Source: a virus | Taxonomy: Duplodnaviria > Heunggongvirae > Uroviricota > Caudoviricetes | DNA: 55,008 nucleotides | Strand: one strand, 5' to 3' | IMG/VR virus record: IMGVR_UViG_2925891887_000003 | Part shown: positions 2,673 through 11,010 of the stretch, in pieces | Position numbering within the stretch: the stretch's first letter is position 1 | Layout of the letters: the number at the start of each line of letters is the position of its first letter | Position numbers and translations under genes: made by a program | The notes under the pieces: generated by a model | The model's input: the letters and a program-made list of their open reading frames with translations, nothing else | The model's database searches: none | Told to the model about the DNA's origin: nothing

Positions 2673-2893
2673 TGCACCACCTCCATGTTCATCAGGTCAT
2701 CCTGGCAACGCTGTACCACGCCATCAAGCTGCTCTGTCATCAGATAAATCAGGGAAACCAGTTGCTCACATTGAGCACTGGCAGGTTTTTCGTAGCAATC
2801 CTGAAGAACAGCCATTCCGGTGACAAACTCCCCCACGTTACGAAGATGCTTCAGGCGGACAATATCGTCATAAGAGATTGCGGCGTGATTCAT
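2669..2893 (-). CDS. hypothetical small protein (position of P4 epsilon-like genes)
   Basis: ORF 2669..2932; internal ATG at 2893 ([11 protein letters not shown]...) preferred. Translationally coupled to the downstream ORF. Function inferred only from position. Confidence 0.3.
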
Positions 2894-3287
2894 CACATCA
2901 CCTCCCGGACAGGCAGGCGAGCAGCAAGGCAAAGCACATATTCATGGACCAGTGAAAGACGTGCATGAGACTCATCGCTGGCGACAATACGCAGCATACT
3001 GATACGTGGTTTACGTTCTGCACGACGAACGGCGGCAAAAACAAATATAAATTGAGGATGTGATGGGGTGAGGATCGTAGCCATAAGGGCAATCTCCAAT
3101 AAGTAGCGGTTATTGCCACCACCAGAGCTGCAAATCTCATGGGTGATGGCCCGGACGGGGTTTGCAGTACCGGCCTTATTGGAAACCGGCCAGCCCGAAG
3201 GCTGCCCCGCCCGGACCACCATTATCTGACAGGAGCCACGGTGTAAGCACCACAGCCCGAAAAATAGGTGTGCCTGAGCAACGACAT

Positions 3288-3309
3288 AAAAAAACACGCT
3301 CGACGCGTG
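3288..3309 (-). terminator. intrinsic terminator downstream of the AlpA/Vis-like gene
   Basis: On the minus strand: 5-bp GC stem (CACGC/GCGTG, loop GTCGA) followed by U7 (plus-strand A-run 3288-3294). Confidence 0.45.
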
Positions 3310-3437
3310 CTGTGTCGCCAATAAGTTACACGGGCTGCAAATCCCGGCTGCCGATTTTGCGGCAGCGGAAAAACTATAACTGGAAAGGTTGCCAGGACGC
3401 AAGCCACAAAAAAAGAGATGAGACTGCAAAGCCAGAT

Positions 3438-3698
3438 TCACGCATGGACTCCTTGCTCGCGGGCTGCAATTCGCGCCGCCATCCATGCACTGACCTCCGA
3501 CTGTACCCAGGCAACATTTTTTCCACCCAGGGAGATCTGCTGCGGGAAGGCATCACGGCTGATAAGGTCGTAGATGGTTGAACGGGATAGCCCGCAAAGG
3601 TGCATCACTTCAGGTAATCGTATGAAGCGCTCCTGCTGAGTCGGAACCGGGAGCACCGGAGCAGCTGGTGCCTGGGTGGAAACGGAAATAGTATGCAT
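3438..3698 (-). CDS. AlpA/Vis-family (MerR-like) phage transcriptional regulator
   Basis: 86 aa; [49 protein letters not shown] matches the AlpA-family pattern (RLP.V....G.SRST.Y......FP....LG...V.W..SEV..W). First gene of the leftward operon, divergent from the late operon. Confidence 0.75.
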
Positions 3699-4232
3699 CT
3701 CGCTACCTCTCTAATATGTTTTCAGTAGTCCGGAGAATTCCATCCGGATTCAGGTAGTTCCTTATTATGTTTATATAAGCGGCTCGCGCATGCTTTATTT
3801 AATTAGAGTGAAATATTGCTTTCTCAAAAAATAAAACAGCTAAAAACCGGATAAAACGGACAAAAACAAATCATTCCTTCATGGAATATAATAAGGAACT
3901 TAAAGAATAAAAAAGTCTATTACACCAGGCAGGATCGCAGCTCAAGCCTGAACCAGACCATATCATTCCGGGCGTTACATCATAAGGACAAAGACGGCAC
4001 CGGAATAATAAAAGGGCCAAAAAACATCCATAAAAAACAGTTCATCATATGTATTAATTAAATTAACGACTAAAAAATTAAATTACCCGCATCCTTCCGC
4101 ATTTATCCGGATGTGTTTAATGAGCATCAGACAGATTCATTTTTATGGATATTTTCTTGAAATGCAACCGAGTGTAGGGAGGTTAAGTTTTGAATTTTCA
4201 AACAGACATAAGACACATTTTATACTGTATAT

Positions 4233-4450
4233 TGAATAGTGTTGAATACGTGTGAATAGTGGTGATGAGTAAAAATCTAGTAATAAACTGAAATAAAGAT
4301 CGCGACTCATATGAAAAACAAATATAAGTTTAAATTTATCTCTGTGAACAGTCATGAACAGTAGATGACCACTTTGATTTAAACACTACACTCCTTAATT
4401 CCATGTATTTACTATTCTTTTATAAAAGTGAACAGTAGTGAATAGTATGT
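4233..4450. repeat. cluster of at least 7 TGAAYAGT-type short repeats (candidate iterons or operator sites)
   Basis: tgaatagtg, tgaatacgtg, tgaatagtgg (4233-4260); gtgaacagtc, atgaacagtag (4345-4365); gtgaacagtag, gtgaatagtat (4429-4450). Confidence 0.5.
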
Positions 4451-6590: not shown

Positions 6591-8630
6591 TTAGGCATCG
6601 CAACCCTTTAACGAAATTAAAATACTACTATTCATATGCTGTTCGCAACTCTTTTTTATAAAGAACGTGCTCAAGATCAGCATCTCCAGACCAGTTAAAA
6701 AGATTACATTATTTTTTAAAGAATCAATTTCAGAATCAATTACTGCATTCGTAAATCTTTTTTGACCTGTATTTGCTTCGACATATGTTCTATAAATTAT
6801 TCTCTTATGCTTAACTGTAAGATATGGGCACGTCATCATATCAAGGAATAGCATAAATGTTTCAGTGTCTTTTTTTATATCGTTCCGACCACTTATCAAA
6901 CTCTGTATAGCAAGGACAATATCTTCTTTCATTTTTAGATAGAGAACATCATCGCCTATATAGTGTAACATGCTGCATATAGAAAAATATTCTAAATCGT
7001 AAAAACACTCATTCTCACTAATACCCAACAAATCCTTAAATTCATCTGGATTGAGTTTATACTGCTCCCCCAAACCTTTCATACATATAAGTAAGTTAGA
7101 TAACTCCACTGGCCTCTCATGAATATTACCCATGCTTTTCATGCACATAAGAAGCTCATCAAAAGTATTCTTTTTTATAACTTCACTAATGTCTGAAGCT
7201 TGCTTATTAGCAAATGAATTTATTTCCAAAATAACTTGGCTAATTATGTATGTCTGTCGGACTCGAAAATCCATAGCATAAATAAAAAAAATCACCTCAT
7301 TGAATATTGAGAAGAATTTATAAGTTATATCTTCTTTTCCTGACAGATCGAACATCCTCAACAGCCTAATTACTTTGAAAAACTTACTCTTAATCGCACT
7401 TATTAAGTATGAGCTAACAAGATCAAATGTGGTATTGTTTTTTCTAACCGCAATTTTGATTCGTTTTATAAATTTGTCCGCGTGTAGCTTTTTATTCCAT
7501 ACACCTTTCAATGGAAAAAGGTTATTCATATTTTCAGGCTGAATTTTGACGTCTGGATTTAAATTAACCATAGCTGTTAACTCATCCAACTTCTCAGTAT
7601 GGATTAACGATCCATATAAATCCTCAATGATTTCTGCAATATCATTTTTAGCCATCGTGGCTCCAGTCACGAATGGCCTCTCGATAAATTCCTTTTTAGA
7701 TTCATTCAAATAAAGCTTATATTTTTCGAGTTCATTTGCCAGTACAAATTCTATTAGCTTAAATGTTTCATCATCATCCGCAAATATAAAATAATCATCA
7801 ACGTAACGTCTTATAGCATAGCTCTTATCTTTAACTATGCCTGGCTCAAGATTCAAATGAGACTCAACATTCAAGTCAACGCGCTGTAATATAATCTCCG
7901 CAAATATCCTTGAAAATTCAGGCCCAATTATTATGCCATTTGTTTCACCATAATTGGCATCTTGAAAAAGCTTATCCAAACAACCTTCAAAGCTGTTATA
8001 AGTTCTATTAACCTTAGAGAATTCTTTAGATTTTACAGCCCATGAAACGCTGTGTGTATATATATGACTAAAACACTTAGCAATATCAAGCTTTAAAAGT
8101 TTCCTAAACTTCCTTTCCAATCTATGAAATTCATATGACTCATAAAACTTATAGATGAAAGGATATTTCTTATATGAAAAATGGGAAGATGAGGAAGTTT
8201 CTTGGGAATCAAAGCCATGATTATGAAATTGTACAAGACCATCTTTTAGATTTATTCTACTTTTTAAGAAGTCCTTTTCGTAATAATAGCTCCCTATTTT
8301 GCTAGGATAACGTAGCGAAAACGGACTTTTTGTACACATATGAACCATCAAATGTTCATACTTATCATAAAAATCACAGATTCTTAACTGCGTTGAAGGA
8401 TGTATAATGCCAAGGCTTCGAGAACTCGCCAGCCCCTTTTTTATTTTATAGGAGTAAGGGATGGTATAAGAATCCAGCTTAAGGCCTTCTGAAAATGTTC
8501 CGGGTAAAACTTTATTTTCAGAAATTAACTTATAGAAACCTTCGTTAGAAAAAAGGATAGGGACTTCATATGGTAAAATATCCGTGAGAAGTACTCTTTT
8601 ATAATCACTCTTCGATATTTTAATTTTCAT
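6591..8630 (-). CDS. reverse transcriptase, large (RT-B; UG/Abi-class defence-type RT with ~390-aa C-terminal extension)
   Basis: 679 aa, ~30% GC. RT motifs: LKLDIAKCFSHIYTHSV (motif A with Asp), NGIIIGPEFSRIFAEIILQRVD (motif B), RRYVDDYFIFADD (motif C, YVDD). GGTGA RBS; start 3 nt after the RT-A stop. Confidence 0.85.
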   Translation of the reverse strand: MKIKISKSDYKRVLLTDILPYEVPILFSNEGFYKLISENKVLPGTFSEGLKLDSYTIPYSYKIKKGLASSRSLGIIHPSTQLRICDFYDKYEHLMVHMCTKSPFSLRYPSKIGSYYYEKDFLKSRINLKDGLVQFHNHGFDSQETSSSSHFSYKKYPFIYKFYESYEFHRLERKFRKLLKLDIAKCFSHIYTHSVSWAVKSKEFSKVNRTYNSFEGCLDKLFQDANYGETNGIIIGPEFSRIFAEIILQRVDLNVESHLNLEPGIVKDKSYAIRRYVDDYFIFADDDETFKLIEFVLANELEKYKLYLNESKKEFIERPFVTGATMAKNDIAEIIEDLYGSLIHTEKLDELTAMVNLNPDVKIQPENMNNLFPLKGVWNKKLHADKFIKRIKIAVRKNNTTFDLVSSYLISAIKSKFFKVIRLLRMFDLSGKEDITYKFFSIFNEVIFFIYAMDFRVRQTYIISQVILEINSFANKQASDISEVIKKNTFDELLMCMKSMGNIHERPVELSNLLICMKGLGEQYKLNPDEFKDLLGISENECFYDLEYFSICSMLHYIGDDVLYLKMKEDIVLAIQSLISGRNDIKKDTETFMLFLDMMTCPYLTVKHKRIIYRTYVEANTGQKRFTNAVIDSEIDSLKNNVIFLTGLEMLILSTFFIKKSCEQHMNSSILISLKGCDA

Positions 8631-8633
8631 GAA

Positions 8634-9830
8634 TCACCAAACCTTATTTATTTTAATAATATCTTCCCGTTTAAAAGAAGACAGTAGCCGTTTTTCAAAA
8701 CCAGCCAAAAATGAGTATTTTTTAGGCGCAGTTAATAAGTTGTGACCTGCTGCTAAAATTTTTCTCCCCACCTCGCCCTTTGAAGAAAATAGCATCCTAT
8801 TCTTAAATATATCAAGTTCCTTGAGCTGTGTTTTATCAGTTATATGTTGATAATTGTAATAAATTCCACTATATAAAGCATCAGTTTTATTACTATTGGA
8901 GTTTACTAATATATTACCAGTTAAATACTTTATTCTTTTCTTCAAGAGTTCTGCATCAGAATTATTTGAGTAATCTTTTACCGCAAGTGCAATCCTTCTT
9001 TTTATTTTCTTTATTTTCTCCTCCGAAATTCTGATCACAACATGACGACGCTGATTTTTTAATCCATGGTGTATAATAAATGAATATCCCAAAAACTCAA
9101 TTTCAGAATGTTTAGTTGAAGTGTCCTCTATGGTATACTCACTGCACTTTCTTTCATTTAAATGTAATCCATTTGGTAAAATCCTTGAAAAATAATTTTT
9201 ATAATCTGGTATTTTATAGAATGAAAAAACTATGATATCATCCACATATCTTGAAGCATAAAAAACTTCAGGCAGCCTCGCCAACTCAGCATCAAATTCC
9301 TCCATAAATATTTCTGATAAAGTCGCACTTAATCCCATACCACGGGGAAGTCCGTTATTTGCAGAGAAAGCGTTATGTTTAAAAAGACCATTGATAAATT
9401 TTTTAGTATTATGAGAAATAATCGGGTTATTATTAATTCTTTGGAAAACGATATTTTTATCTATTGATTCATAAAAACTCTTAATATCCAGCCTGTAAAT
9501 ATAATAATTTACAGGCTCACTTAACACTGTATTTACTTTTTTTATGATGTCATGTCTGTTGTTTTGTTTAACACTATACACACGCTTAATGTTATCATTT
9601 ATTTTCCTGGCGACAAGTACATCCATAAAATCTTTAAATATATACACATTTTTGTTGTTAATTCTTGAATTTGAGATCGAACCAAATGAGTATGTTTCAA
9701 TTGAGCCATTAACTTTATCAGCTATATATTTTTTATATTCAGCTGAATTCCTACCAATTTTGTATCTTTTTGGATCGGTTTTTTTTAAAAGCTTAATTAA
9801 GTTCGAAACGGAAAATGACTGGTTTAACAT
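8634..9830 (-). CDS. reverse transcriptase, small (RT-A; UG/Abi-class defence-type RT)
   Basis: ORF track starts at GTG 9863 (overlapping int); ATG at 9830 with AAGGGG RBS preferred (398 aa). Motifs: YRLDIKSFYESID (A), GLPRGMGLSATLSEIFMEEFD (B), YASRYVDDIIVFS (C, YVDD). AT-rich. Confidence 0.85.
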   Translation of the reverse strand: MLNQSFSVSNLIKLLKKTDPKRYKIGRNSAEYKKYIADKVNGSIETYSFGSISNSRINNKNVYIFKDFMDVLVARKINDNIKRVYSVKQNNRHDIIKKVNTVLSEPVNYYIYRLDIKSFYESIDKNIVFQRINNNPIISHNTKKFINGLFKHNAFSANNGLPRGMGLSATLSEIFMEEFDAELARLPEVFYASRYVDDIIVFSFYKIPDYKNYFSRILPNGLHLNERKCSEYTIEDTSTKHSEIEFLGYSFIIHHGLKNQRRHVVIRISEEKIKKIKRRIALAVKDYSNNSDAELLKKRIKYLTGNILVNSNSNKTDALYSGIYYNYQHITDKTQLKELDIFKNRMLFSSKGEVGRKILAAGHNLLTAPKKYSFLAGFEKRLLSSFKREDIIKINKVW

Positions 9831-9831
9831 A

Positions 9832-11010
9832 TTATAACCCCTTTTTTTTGCGAAGATAATCACTGTACCATTGCATCATCTTCTGCCTTTCCATAAGGTA
9901 TATGGCATGATTATAAGTTCCTCTTATATTATTTCTATCAACATGAGCTAATTGGACTTCAATAAATGCTGATTGAAAACCTTCTTCATGCAAAATTGTT
10001 GATAACATATGTCTGAACCCGTGACCAGTGAGTCGGCCTTCGTAACCGATACGCTTGATAACTTGATTTATGCTAGCTTCGCTCATCGGTTTGTTCGGAT
10101 CGTTCCGTCCTGGAAAAACATAACGATAGTTCCCTGTCATTATCTTGAGTTCATGGAGTAAATCTAACGCTTGGGTCGACAATGGCACAAGATGCGGCCT
10201 GCGCATTTTCATCCTTTCAGCAGGAATTTCCCAAATAGCGTTATCCAGATCAAATTCTTGCCATAATGCCGCGCGTAATTCGATGGTTCTCACGCCCGTA
10301 ATCATCAGTAATTTCGTTGCTATCTGGACAAGCTTACTCCCGGTGTAACTCTCTAAGGCACGCAGAAATTCGGGTATCTCATCAGCTTTTAGGAACGGGA
10401 AATGATTGGATTGGTGCACTTCGAGAGCGCTGGAAAGATCTGCCGCAGGATTGTACTCCGCTCTACCCGTTGCAATTGCGTAGCGAAACACTTCAGAGCA
10501 ACGCTGACGCACTTTCCGCATTTTCTCCAACGCACCACGTTTCTCAATTTTACGCAGTACGTTCAGCAGCTCTAGCGGTTTAATCTCACTCACAGGCCTT
10601 GTTCCAACATAAGGAAAAATGTCGTTCTTAAACGCTTCCATGATGTCTGATGCATATCCTGCCGACCATTTAGCAGATTTAAGTTGATGCCACTCTCTGG
10701 CTATCTTTTCGAAGGCGTTCTCTGACTCTGCTTGCAGAGCCAGCTTTTGCTCTTTTCGAACATCACTAGGGTTCTTTCCTTCTGCCACAAGTTTTCGAGC
10801 TTCATCACGACGGGAACGAGCATCGGCAAGAGTGATCGTTGGGTAAACGCCAAGCGAGATCATCTTGGGTTTACCGGCATAGCGATAGCGGAACCGCCAG
10901 CTCTTGCTTCCATTAGGTTCTATAAGCAATGACAAGCCTTGCCCATCCCCAAGCGTATAGGGTTTATCTTCAGGCTTAGCGCGGCGAATCTGCATATCGT
11001 TTAAAGGCAT
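9832..11010 (-). CDS. int: P4-type tyrosine integrase
   Basis: 392 aa; N-terminus MPLNDMQIRRAKPEDKPYTLGDGQGLSL... typical of P4-family integrases; C-terminal HGFRHM...RGTYNHAIY catalytic region. Adjacent to the duplicated thrW 3' segment. Confidence 0.9.
   Translation of the reverse strand: MPLNDMQIRRAKPEDKPYTLGDGQGLSLLIEPNGSKSWRFRYRYAGKPKMISLGVYPTITLADARSRRDEARKLVAEGKNPSDVRKEQKLALQAESENAFEKIAREWHQLKSAKWSAGYASDIMEAFKNDIFPYVGTRPVSEIKPLELLNVLRKIEKRGALEKMRKVRQRCSEVFRYAIATGRAEYNPAADLSSALEVHQSNHFPFLKADEIPEFLRALESYTGSKLVQIATKLLMITGVRTIELRAALWQEFDLDNAIWEIPAERMKMRRPHLVPLSTQALDLLHELKIMTGNYRYVFPGRNDPNKPMSEASINQVIKRIGYEGRLTGHGFRHMLSTILHEEGFQSAFIEVQLAHVDRNNIRGTYNHAIYLMERQKMMQWYSDYLRKKKGL

Follow-up and report, generated by a model that had tools for sequence, protein, structure and literature searches.

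A probable P4-type RNA immunity region with two varying pairing segments in a satellite prophage of Escherichia coli

Introduction

The described systems that come closest to the region considered here are the immunity locus of the satellite P4, the immI locus (c4-icd-ant) of P1 and P7, and the IsrK locus of Gifsy-1 in Salmonella. For P1 and P7 it is old knowledge that the specificity of immunity resides in RNAs of this kind. In P4, the immunity RNA causes premature termination at the terminator t1, as Briani et al. reportedly described in 2000. The P4-like retronphage phiR73 is reported by Sabbattini et al. (1996, Virology 216:389) to possess an immunity specificity of its own, which lies in the RNA and its targets.

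The immunity factor of P4 was once taken for a 'cI protein', ORF137, and was later shown to be an RNA, whose 5′ end is cut by RNase P in both P4 and P1 (PMC5499578). The seqA and CI RNA of the P4 literature are, in P4-like prophages, the IsrK-like RNA and the C4 RNA (PMC3632133, PMC4825925), and the arrangement in Gifsy-1 has been called a structural homologue of P4 seqA (PMC4825925). In P4, only transcripts from the late promoter upstream give full-length eta (PMC10111431, citing Forti et al. 1999). The translation of eta, which is coupled to that of the alpA homologue, keeps transcription from terminating (PMC10111431).

In this work we consider a locus in a window of viral DNA, by which we mean the whole stretch of 55,008 nucleotides that was analysed (IMG/VR record IMGVR_UViG_2925891887_000003). 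An earlier note, made from the letters of the window, had proposed that a structured block at 3100–3440, downstream of an AlpA/Vis-like gene, might be a P4-type RNA immunity region. We think that this proposal is right with a probability of about 0.9, that is, that the block is an RNA-only immunity region homologous to P4 cI/seqA/seqC. The basis computed here consists of RNA family matches, RNA structures, covariation within and between molecules, a terminator, the overlap of a target with a Shine-Dalgarno sequence, and a frame that is open without selection on its amino acids. The kind of system is already known, since it is in Rfam and has been noted in P4-like prophages, and this copy of it is widespread in E. 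coli.

Comparison with described systems

The locus shares with P4 the vis/alpA gene, the promoter, an IsrK-like leader with an intrinsic terminator, a C4-type RNA, a target over the Shine-Dalgarno sequence of kil, the nesting of kil in eta, and the alpha operon. The −10 element, the hairpins, t1, C4 and the start of kil all align between the two. The alignment to P4 that the earlier note had suggested as a check covers 92% of the region at 69% identity, with the elements in the same order. There are also differences from P4. The a′ segment is CUGCAAA here and UUCUCAC in P4, and the b′ segment is CCAAUAAG here and CCUGUGAA in P4. The spacer between t1 and C4 is shorter than that of P4, with 62 nt against 107 nt, and the homologous start of eta is a GTG here, whereas it is ATGATGATG in P4. 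The cross-duplexes, those of P4 CI with the targets of the window and those of the C4 RNA of the window with the targets of P4, are predicted to be weak in both directions. Because both specificity segments differ and the cross-duplexes are weak, the element is predicted to be heteroimmune to P4.

The immI locus of P1 and P7 resembles the present one in having the C4 and c4-a1b1 families, with a′ and b′ pairing to both a1b1 and a2b2, and an icd-like first ORF whose ribosome-binding site is covered by an antisense RNA that is an RNase P substrate (PMC5499578). It differs in its cargo, which here is a replication operon (alpha) and not an antirepressor, and in that an eta frame coupled to alpA overlays the block here. 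The Salmonella locus (Gifsy-1 IsrK, STnc1160, orf45-anrP) has in common with the present one a short terminated IsrK, after which come a stable RNA made by processing and then a small ORF. The difference is that in Gifsy-1 the short RNA activates in trans the translation of an antirepressor-like protein.

The satellite prophage and its genes

The element in the window is a P4-like satellite prophage of the E. coli chromosome, and it is intact. At least ten complete E. coli genomes match the region 3050–3750 with 100% identity, AR_0019 and 22AR0322 being examples of strains with the identical locus, and a related copy of the locus is present in 1,246 of 5,426 genomes. The minus strand reads, in order, alpA/vis, the block of about 350 nt, a 63-aa ORF, a 73-aa ORF, a DUF5375 gene with 71% identity to P4 orf106, and the gene of an alpha-type primase-helicase. 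The other side of alpA, which includes a defence hotspot, holds an iteron cluster resembling the origin repeats of P4, two Psu-family genes (one of them in the sid position), an Ogr/Delta zinc-finger gene, DRT3a/b and an integrase gene. The alpha, int, Psu-family, Delta-like and kil genes and the eta frame are all open. The late (PLL-type) transcript has the alpA/vis-like gene as its first, and the RNA block lies where a P4-type immunity region should be, between vis/alpA and alpha, as the leader of the leftward (replication) operon. Over the block, RefSeq annotates a single CDS, an 'Icd-like' one of 182 aa, and no RNA.

The ORF of 73 aa that comes next to kil has no similarity to P4 epsilon and no match in Pfam or NCBIfam; neither an epsilon nor an orf151 homologue follows kil. 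The induction circuit of the element, in which no epsilon homologue could be detected, may not be that of P4. The positions of the features are collected in Table 1.

Table 1. Features of the immunity region and of the genes that adjoin it, in window positions
Feature	Position	Strand	Evidence or description
alpA/vis-like gene, 86 aa	3438..3698	-	Pfam Phage_AlpA, E 4e-20; RefSeq CDS at identical coordinates; homologous to P4 ORF88
eta-like ORF through the whole RNA block, ending with kil	2893..3486	-	197 aa from ATG 3486; 182 aa from GTG 3441
PLE-like constitutive promoter	3373..3402	-	-35 TTGCGT 3402-3397; 18-nt spacer; -10 TATAGT 3378-3373
c4-a1b1	3327..3379	-	Rfam, 50.0 bits, E 1e-9
IsrK-like / seqA leader RNA (short PLE-to-t1 transcript, 78 nt)	3289..3366	-	Rfam isrK, 72.9 bits, E 1e-13
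a1 target UUUGCAG, loop of leader hairpin 2	3335..3341	-	perfectly complementary to C4 a′; 40/40 loci
b1 target CUUAUUGG	3318..3325	-	complementary to the C4 b′ loop; 40/40 loci
Intrinsic terminator, counterpart of P4 t1	3288..3309	-	CACGCG-UCG-AGCGUG, then U7; terminator scan; 3′ hairpin of isrK model
C4 / CI-type immunity RNA, precursor span, 88 nt	3139..3226	-	Rfam RF01695 C4, 86.1 bits, E 1e-15
b′ segment CCAAUAAG, loop of C4 hairpin 2	3175..3182	-	pairing and covariation
a′ segment CUGCAAA, single-stranded 3′ bulge of C4	3161..3167	-	pairing and covariation
a2 target UUUGCAG, part of seqC, directly 3′ of C4	3128..3134	-	pairing and covariation
b2 target CUUAUUGGAGA, part of seqC	3093..3103	-	11-bp duplex with b′, -13.6 kcal/mol; 40/40 loci
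kil / Icd-like gene, 63 aa, ATG 3084	2893..3084	-	NCBIfam phage_ICD_like, E 4e-19; codon-position diversity

Promoter, leader RNA and terminator

A simple sigma-70 scan left the PLE-like promoter below its threshold, and its −35 element is weak (TTGCGT with an 18-nt spacer). We have assigned the promoter by homology to the annotated −10 of P4 and by conservation. Its −10 element aligns with the TATAGT that the P4 record X02534 annotates as consensus −10, and GGCTTGC and TA(T/C)AGT are kept in all 40 loci compared, with a spacer that varies. Transcription is predicted to start at about 3366, which is where the isrK match begins.

Both Rfam families found in the leader score above their gathering thresholds, which are 50 bits for isrK (RF01394) and 46.7 bits for c4-a1b1 (RF03163). 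The leader RNA is formed by hairpin 1 (3366–3347), hairpin 2 (3346–3331) with a1 in its loop, b1 in a single-stranded stretch, and the terminator. The earlier note had pointed to two GC hairpins, and both are real. The first, given there as 3348–3365, is GCUGCCG-CAAAAU-CGGCAGC at 3366–3347; the second, with its stem at 3309–3295 and U7 at 3294–3288, was recovered by the terminator scan and as the 3′ end of the isrK match. Across 35 sequences the isrK structure is 99.2% paired, compared with 31–48% when the partners are slid.

The terminator is kept in all relatives, in which the second pair of its stem (alignment columns 58/72) shows a compensatory change between C-G and G-C, and P4 has an equivalent hairpin and U-tract. 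The predicted minimum free energy (MFE) fold of the 81-nt leader (3366–3286) forms t1 unaided, and no obvious anti-terminator alternative that CI pairing could remove was found in it. A specific structural switch at t1 thus finds no support in the sequence, because the predicted fold already contains the terminator.

The a target occurs a third time (TTTGCAG, 3430–3424), upstream of the promoter, and we considered this copy as an extra site found only in transcripts from the late promoter, but rejected the idea. This copy does not covary with the a-type: locus L004 has the same upstream sequence and a different a-type, and the copy is absent from the other loci.

The C4 RNA

The C4 match is full length (model positions 1–87 of 87, threshold 45 bits) and comprises a closing stem of 17 bp and two hairpins, the first capped by UUCG and the second presenting b′. 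The stretch folds with an MFE of −53.4 kcal/mol (z −5.4 against shuffles), and its MFE structure is the Rfam consensus. In the comparison of loci, all 864 cells are paired over 27 pairs in 32 sequences, with compensatory change at 8 pairs; sliding the partners lowered pairing to 28–52%.

The three families, c4-a1b1, isrK and C4, all match above their gathering scores and in the order of P4, whose own locus gives 60.8 bits for isrK and 74.9 bits for C4 at the corresponding positions. These matches and the P4 alignment bear out the central claim of the earlier note. Its interval, 3100–3440, did contain the C4/CI RNA, which it had not singled out, and its left border was too tight, as the functional unit reaches the start of kil (3084) and the stop of kil (2893). 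With AlpA as an anchor, 45 loci were collected from species-representative genomes, mostly of Enterobacterales genera, and isrK is followed by C4 in each of the 39 relatives that have enough DNA downstream.

Specificity segments and their targets

The specificity segments of the C4 RNA are short (7 nt for a′ and 8–11 nt for b′), and each has two targets, with a1 and b1 located upstream of the terminator and a2 and b2 downstream of C4. The b2 target overlaps the Shine-Dalgarno sequence of kil, GGAG (3097–3094). In all 40 loci the four duplexes a′/a1, a′/a2, b′/b1 and b′/b2 are paired at 30 of 30 positions, and 6 of the 7 positions of a, as well as most of those of b, show compensatory changes. 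Shuffling the C4 RNAs and the targets between loci 5,000 times gave a paired fraction of 0.81 at most. Computed for the segments alone, duplexes have mean energies of −8.5 to −13.3 kcal/mol within a type and of −1.4 to −6.1 kcal/mol between types. These segment duplexes were used in place of whole-molecule RNAduplex calculations of C4 against its targets, which opened the stem of C4 itself and were uninformative.

Among the 40 loci there are 18 combinations, made up of 5 a-types with about 8 b-types, and these are always perfectly self-matched. Each key, a or b, is written three times, in the upstream target, in the C4 RNA and in the downstream target, and the transcript order is interleaved (a1 b1 b′ a′ a2 b2). 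Because the copies of a and b are interleaved, one key alone is not swappable by a single crossover. We give about even odds to the view that immunity in P4-like satellites is set by two independently varying RNA keys, and that diversifying selection would have had to produce their variation, by triple compensatory changes that recurred or by multi-patch conversion. Escape from repression by resident satellites can be suggested as an example of selection on the keys. The interleaved combinatorial a/b code may exceed what the searchable literature contains, going beyond the cases of P4 versus phiR73 and P1 versus P7.

The eta frame and kil

The two minus-strand ORFs that the earlier note had listed, of 197 aa (3486..2893) and 80 aa (3140..2898), are both present. 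The 80-aa ORF was discarded as a gene, being an out-of-frame overlap of kil without support. The 197-aa ORF has 48% identity, end to end, with the eta ORF of P4, and the GTG that corresponds to the P4 start is also the start that RefSeq uses for its 182-aa CDS. Forti et al. reportedly gave in 1999 a size of 197–199 aa for eta and three candidate starts, which fits ATGATGATG overlapping the vis stop in P4 and most relatives.

The frame is kept open over the whole interval. From the stop of alpA to the ATG of kil it has no stop codon in 37 of 40 loci, while the other frames have 2–9. The start overlaps the alpA stop as ATGA or GTGA across the loci, the window having GTGA; the distance from the alpA stop to the kil ATG is 2 modulo 3 in 39 of 40 loci, and the indels within it are of −3, +3, +6, +36 and +45 nt. 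Diversity at the three codon positions is flat upstream of kil, with values of 0.19/0.22/0.17, 0.20/0.16/0.15, 0.34/0.37/0.41, 0.14/0.18/0.16 and 0.32/0.31/0.26 in five sub-regions, whereas kil has the 0.09/0.09/0.33 of a protein-coding sequence. The upstream part, of about 120–134 codons, is kept open without conservation of its amino acids, and what is conserved in it is explained by RNA structure and pairing. Since the non-kil part shows no codon-position selection while its frame stays open, what matters there is probably that it is translated and not which protein results.

The Pfam family Phage_ASH (PF10554) matches residues 37–146 of the 197-aa ORF with 99.9 bits (E 1e-28), exactly over the isrK-to-C4 stretch. 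Taken as a protein family, this stretch passes the HMM cut-off, and its flat diversity is not that of codons under purifying selection. One large survey of satellites lists Phage_ASH as the profile for epsilon.

The kil gene is a real protein gene under selection and, of the operon under immunity control, the first gene to be translated. The tract at its 5′ end (3101–3022) is rich in C and poor in G, with a C/G ratio of 2.1–2.5, and this composition makes the tract a candidate Rho loading site on untranslated RNA, corresponding to timm of P4.

These results divide what the earlier note had said of the coding capacity. The composition that it had called implausible for the 197-aa ORF is so for the first ~134 codons, which have no third-position excess, and not for the last 63, which are a real gene. 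Similarly, the 'non-coding block' does hold the RNA elements, but the 197-aa ORF that crosses it is the P4 eta homologue with kil nested within. The note had also held that detecting a protein translated from this ORF would refute the RNA model. This does not follow, because the ORF is a homologue of eta, which is translated in P4, and its frame is conserved open in relatives.

Alternative explanations

The block might instead encode the N-terminus of an ordinary protein, the 182-aa 'Icd-like' protein or an Ash-family protein of Pfam, with the RNA features incidental. The single RefSeq CDS with no RNA, the Phage_ASH match and the frame that is open in 37 of 40 relatives would all suit this idea. 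It becomes very improbable in view of the missing third-position excess upstream of kil, so clear in kil itself, and of conservation that tracks the RNA helices and the intermolecular pairings, with Rfam scores far above gathering. The history of P4 also tells against it, as the P4 'cI protein' ORF137, still annotated as a protein in the GenBank record of P4, covers the equivalent stretch and the immunity factor proved to be an RNA (PMC5499578). We find it just as hard to believe that the locus is an immI module of the P1/P7 type, in which C4 controls an antirepressor and not replication genes. The C4 and c4-a1b1 families are indeed those of P1/P7, and two-segment a/b pairing with an icd-like first gene is the layout of P1; downstream, however, there is no ant-like ORF, its place being taken by the 73-aa ORF, DUF5375 and the alpha primase-helicase, and upstream alpA, the iteron cluster, the two Psu-family genes and the Delta-like gene make a satellite context.

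Two further possibilities deserve somewhat more credit. The satellite could be cryptic and the RNA locus a fossil that no longer functions, considering that many P4-like elements are partly decayed (PMC8628076) and that the present one has no epsilon homologue. We regard this as improbable, as every element of the circuit is intact, the four RNA–RNA pairings are perfect, kil, the eta frame, alpha, int and the Psu-family and Delta-like genes are open, and identical copies stand in at least ten complete E. coli genomes. The least remote of the alternatives, though still unlikely, is a mechanism like that of Gifsy-1, in which the short IsrK-like RNA would be a trans regulator that opens a long readthrough mRNA, or a decoy for C4, with C4 itself in a secondary role. 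The strength of the isrK match agrees with it, and the short RNA, in which both target sites of C4 are copied exactly, could titrate C4. Moreover, the short IsrK of Salmonella acts in trans on the long isoform (PMC4825925), and IsrK-like elements of P4-like prophages were scored as required in TraDIS of S. Typhi (PMC3632133). On the other hand, the covarying partners of a1 and b1 are the segments of C4, what lies downstream is kil with the alpha operon and not orf45-anrP, and P4 genetics assign repression to CI (PMC4825925, PMC10111431). A trans role of the short leader RNA could also add to the P4 mechanism and coexist with it.

Proposed mechanism

For the P4-type reading that we prefer, the following course of events can be proposed, in which RNA processing (by RNase P and PNPase), the dependence of t1 on CI, the action of Rho, the immunity phenotype and the readthrough from the late promoter are taken from the P4 and P1 literature. 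In lysogeny, the constitutive promoter would drive the leftward leader transcript, from which the C4 structure would be cut as a stable CI-like RNA. Its exposed b′ and a′ segments would pair with a1/b1 (seqA) upstream and with a2/b2 (seqC) downstream. The pairing with seqA would favour a stop at t1, giving the 78-nt IsrK-like RNA and limiting the synthesis of CI, and the pairing with seqC would mask the ribosome-binding site of kil. Left untranslated, kil would allow Rho to terminate transcription in its C-rich start, and the downstream operon, with the 73-aa ORF, DUF5375 and the alpha primase-helicase, would stay off. The expected outcome is a quiescent prophage, together with repression of any satellite that enters with the same a/b type.

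Activation by a helper would use the late promoter upstream of alpA. Translation could then pass continuously from alpA into the eta frame by way of the GTGA overlap, and the ribosomes crossing seqA, C4 and seqC would prevent termination, as suggested by the case of P4.

Conclusions

The result has in the first place the value of an annotation correction. The 182-aa CDS of RefSeq hides a promoter, a leader RNA, a repressor RNA, two target sites and the 63-aa kil gene, and the Phage_ASH family is largely a conceptual translation of RNA genes. If the combinatorial code holds, the window element would be one of its alleles, CUGCAAA/CCAAUAAG. The a′/b′ type gives a prediction of which P4-like satellites the prophage of the window would exclude.

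Annotation of the RNA block

The promoter, the IsrK-like RNA, the terminator and the C4 RNA all lie inside a single CDS of the RefSeq/PGAP annotation (Table), which has no ncRNA feature in this interval. Only the last 63 codons of this 182-aa CDS behave as a protein gene. The Pfam family Phage_ASH (PF10554) is in effect the isrK-to-C4 stretch in conceptual translation. At the P4 locus (L002), PF10554 matches eta and the old 'cI' ORFs and not epsilon, which belongs to PF25738; in a survey of P4-like satellites, PF10554 was listed as the epsilon profile (PMC8628076). No epsilon (PF25738) homologue was found among the scanned ORFs of the satellite element. Where P4 carries epsilon and orf151, the satellite has instead a 73-aa ORF, which does not resemble epsilon and matches no family in Pfam or NCBIfam.

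Table. Coordinates in the window of the features discussed in this part
Feature	Position	Strand	Remarks
73-aa ORF	2672-2890	minus	in place of P4 epsilon and orf151
182-aa 'host cell division inhibitor Icd-like protein'	2893-3441	minus	RefSeq/PGAP, one CDS
PF10554 (Phage_ASH) match	3045-3378		residues 37-146 of the 197-aa eta-like ORF
TTTGCAG, third exact a-target heptamer	3424-3430	minus	shortly after alpA ends; upstream of the constitutive promoter
Palindromic hexamer TCCGGA, 2 copies	3729-3748		TCCGGA-GAATTCCA-TCCGGA
GTGAAYAG repeats, n=4	4252-4445		within 200 bp
DRT3b/DRT3a	6591-9863	minus	anti-phage reverse-transcriptase pair; Psu-to-int hotspot of the satellite
Satellite integrase	9832-11010		next after the DRT3b/DRT3a pair
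tRNA-Thr(CGT)	53565-53640

Specificity segments

The C4 specificity segments and their targets are interleaved in the transcript in the order a1 b1 b' a' a2 b2, both in the window (3093-3341) and in P4 (L002) and the related loci (L004-L042). Downstream of AlpA, the a- and b-types nevertheless form 18 combinations in 40 loci, every one of them self-matched. Some b-types differ from one another at just 3-4 bases, with flanks that are otherwise identical; this pattern suggests that triple compensatory change took place step by step, and speaks less for simple recombination. The third TTTGCAG copy was considered as an extra a target, but among the relatives it shows no covariation with the a-type and is therefore probably due to chance.

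Putative origin and integration site

The GTGAAYAG repeats sit in an AT-rich intergenic stretch with alpA on one side and the Psu-family genes on the other, and are the reverse complement of the type-1 repeat family of the P4 ori (CTGTTCACC). This cluster is likely the replication origin of the satellite. The two TCCGGA copies are 8 nt apart. They precede the start of alpA by about 30 nt and thus fall in the region expected to hold a late promoter or operator of the P4 PLL type.

In strain AR_0019 the satellite integrase directly adjoins tRNA-Thr, whereas in the corresponding part of the window (~11000-55008) ~42 kb lie between the integrase and tRNA-Thr(CGT). This interval contains a hypothetical gene, a DUF2254 gene, a BCCT transporter and a complete prophage with an HK97-type head, a contractile tail, lambdoid regulatory genes and a KAP NTPase gene. 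Two integrase genes other than that of the satellite flank the tRNA, an arrangement that points to tandem elements sharing one tRNA site.
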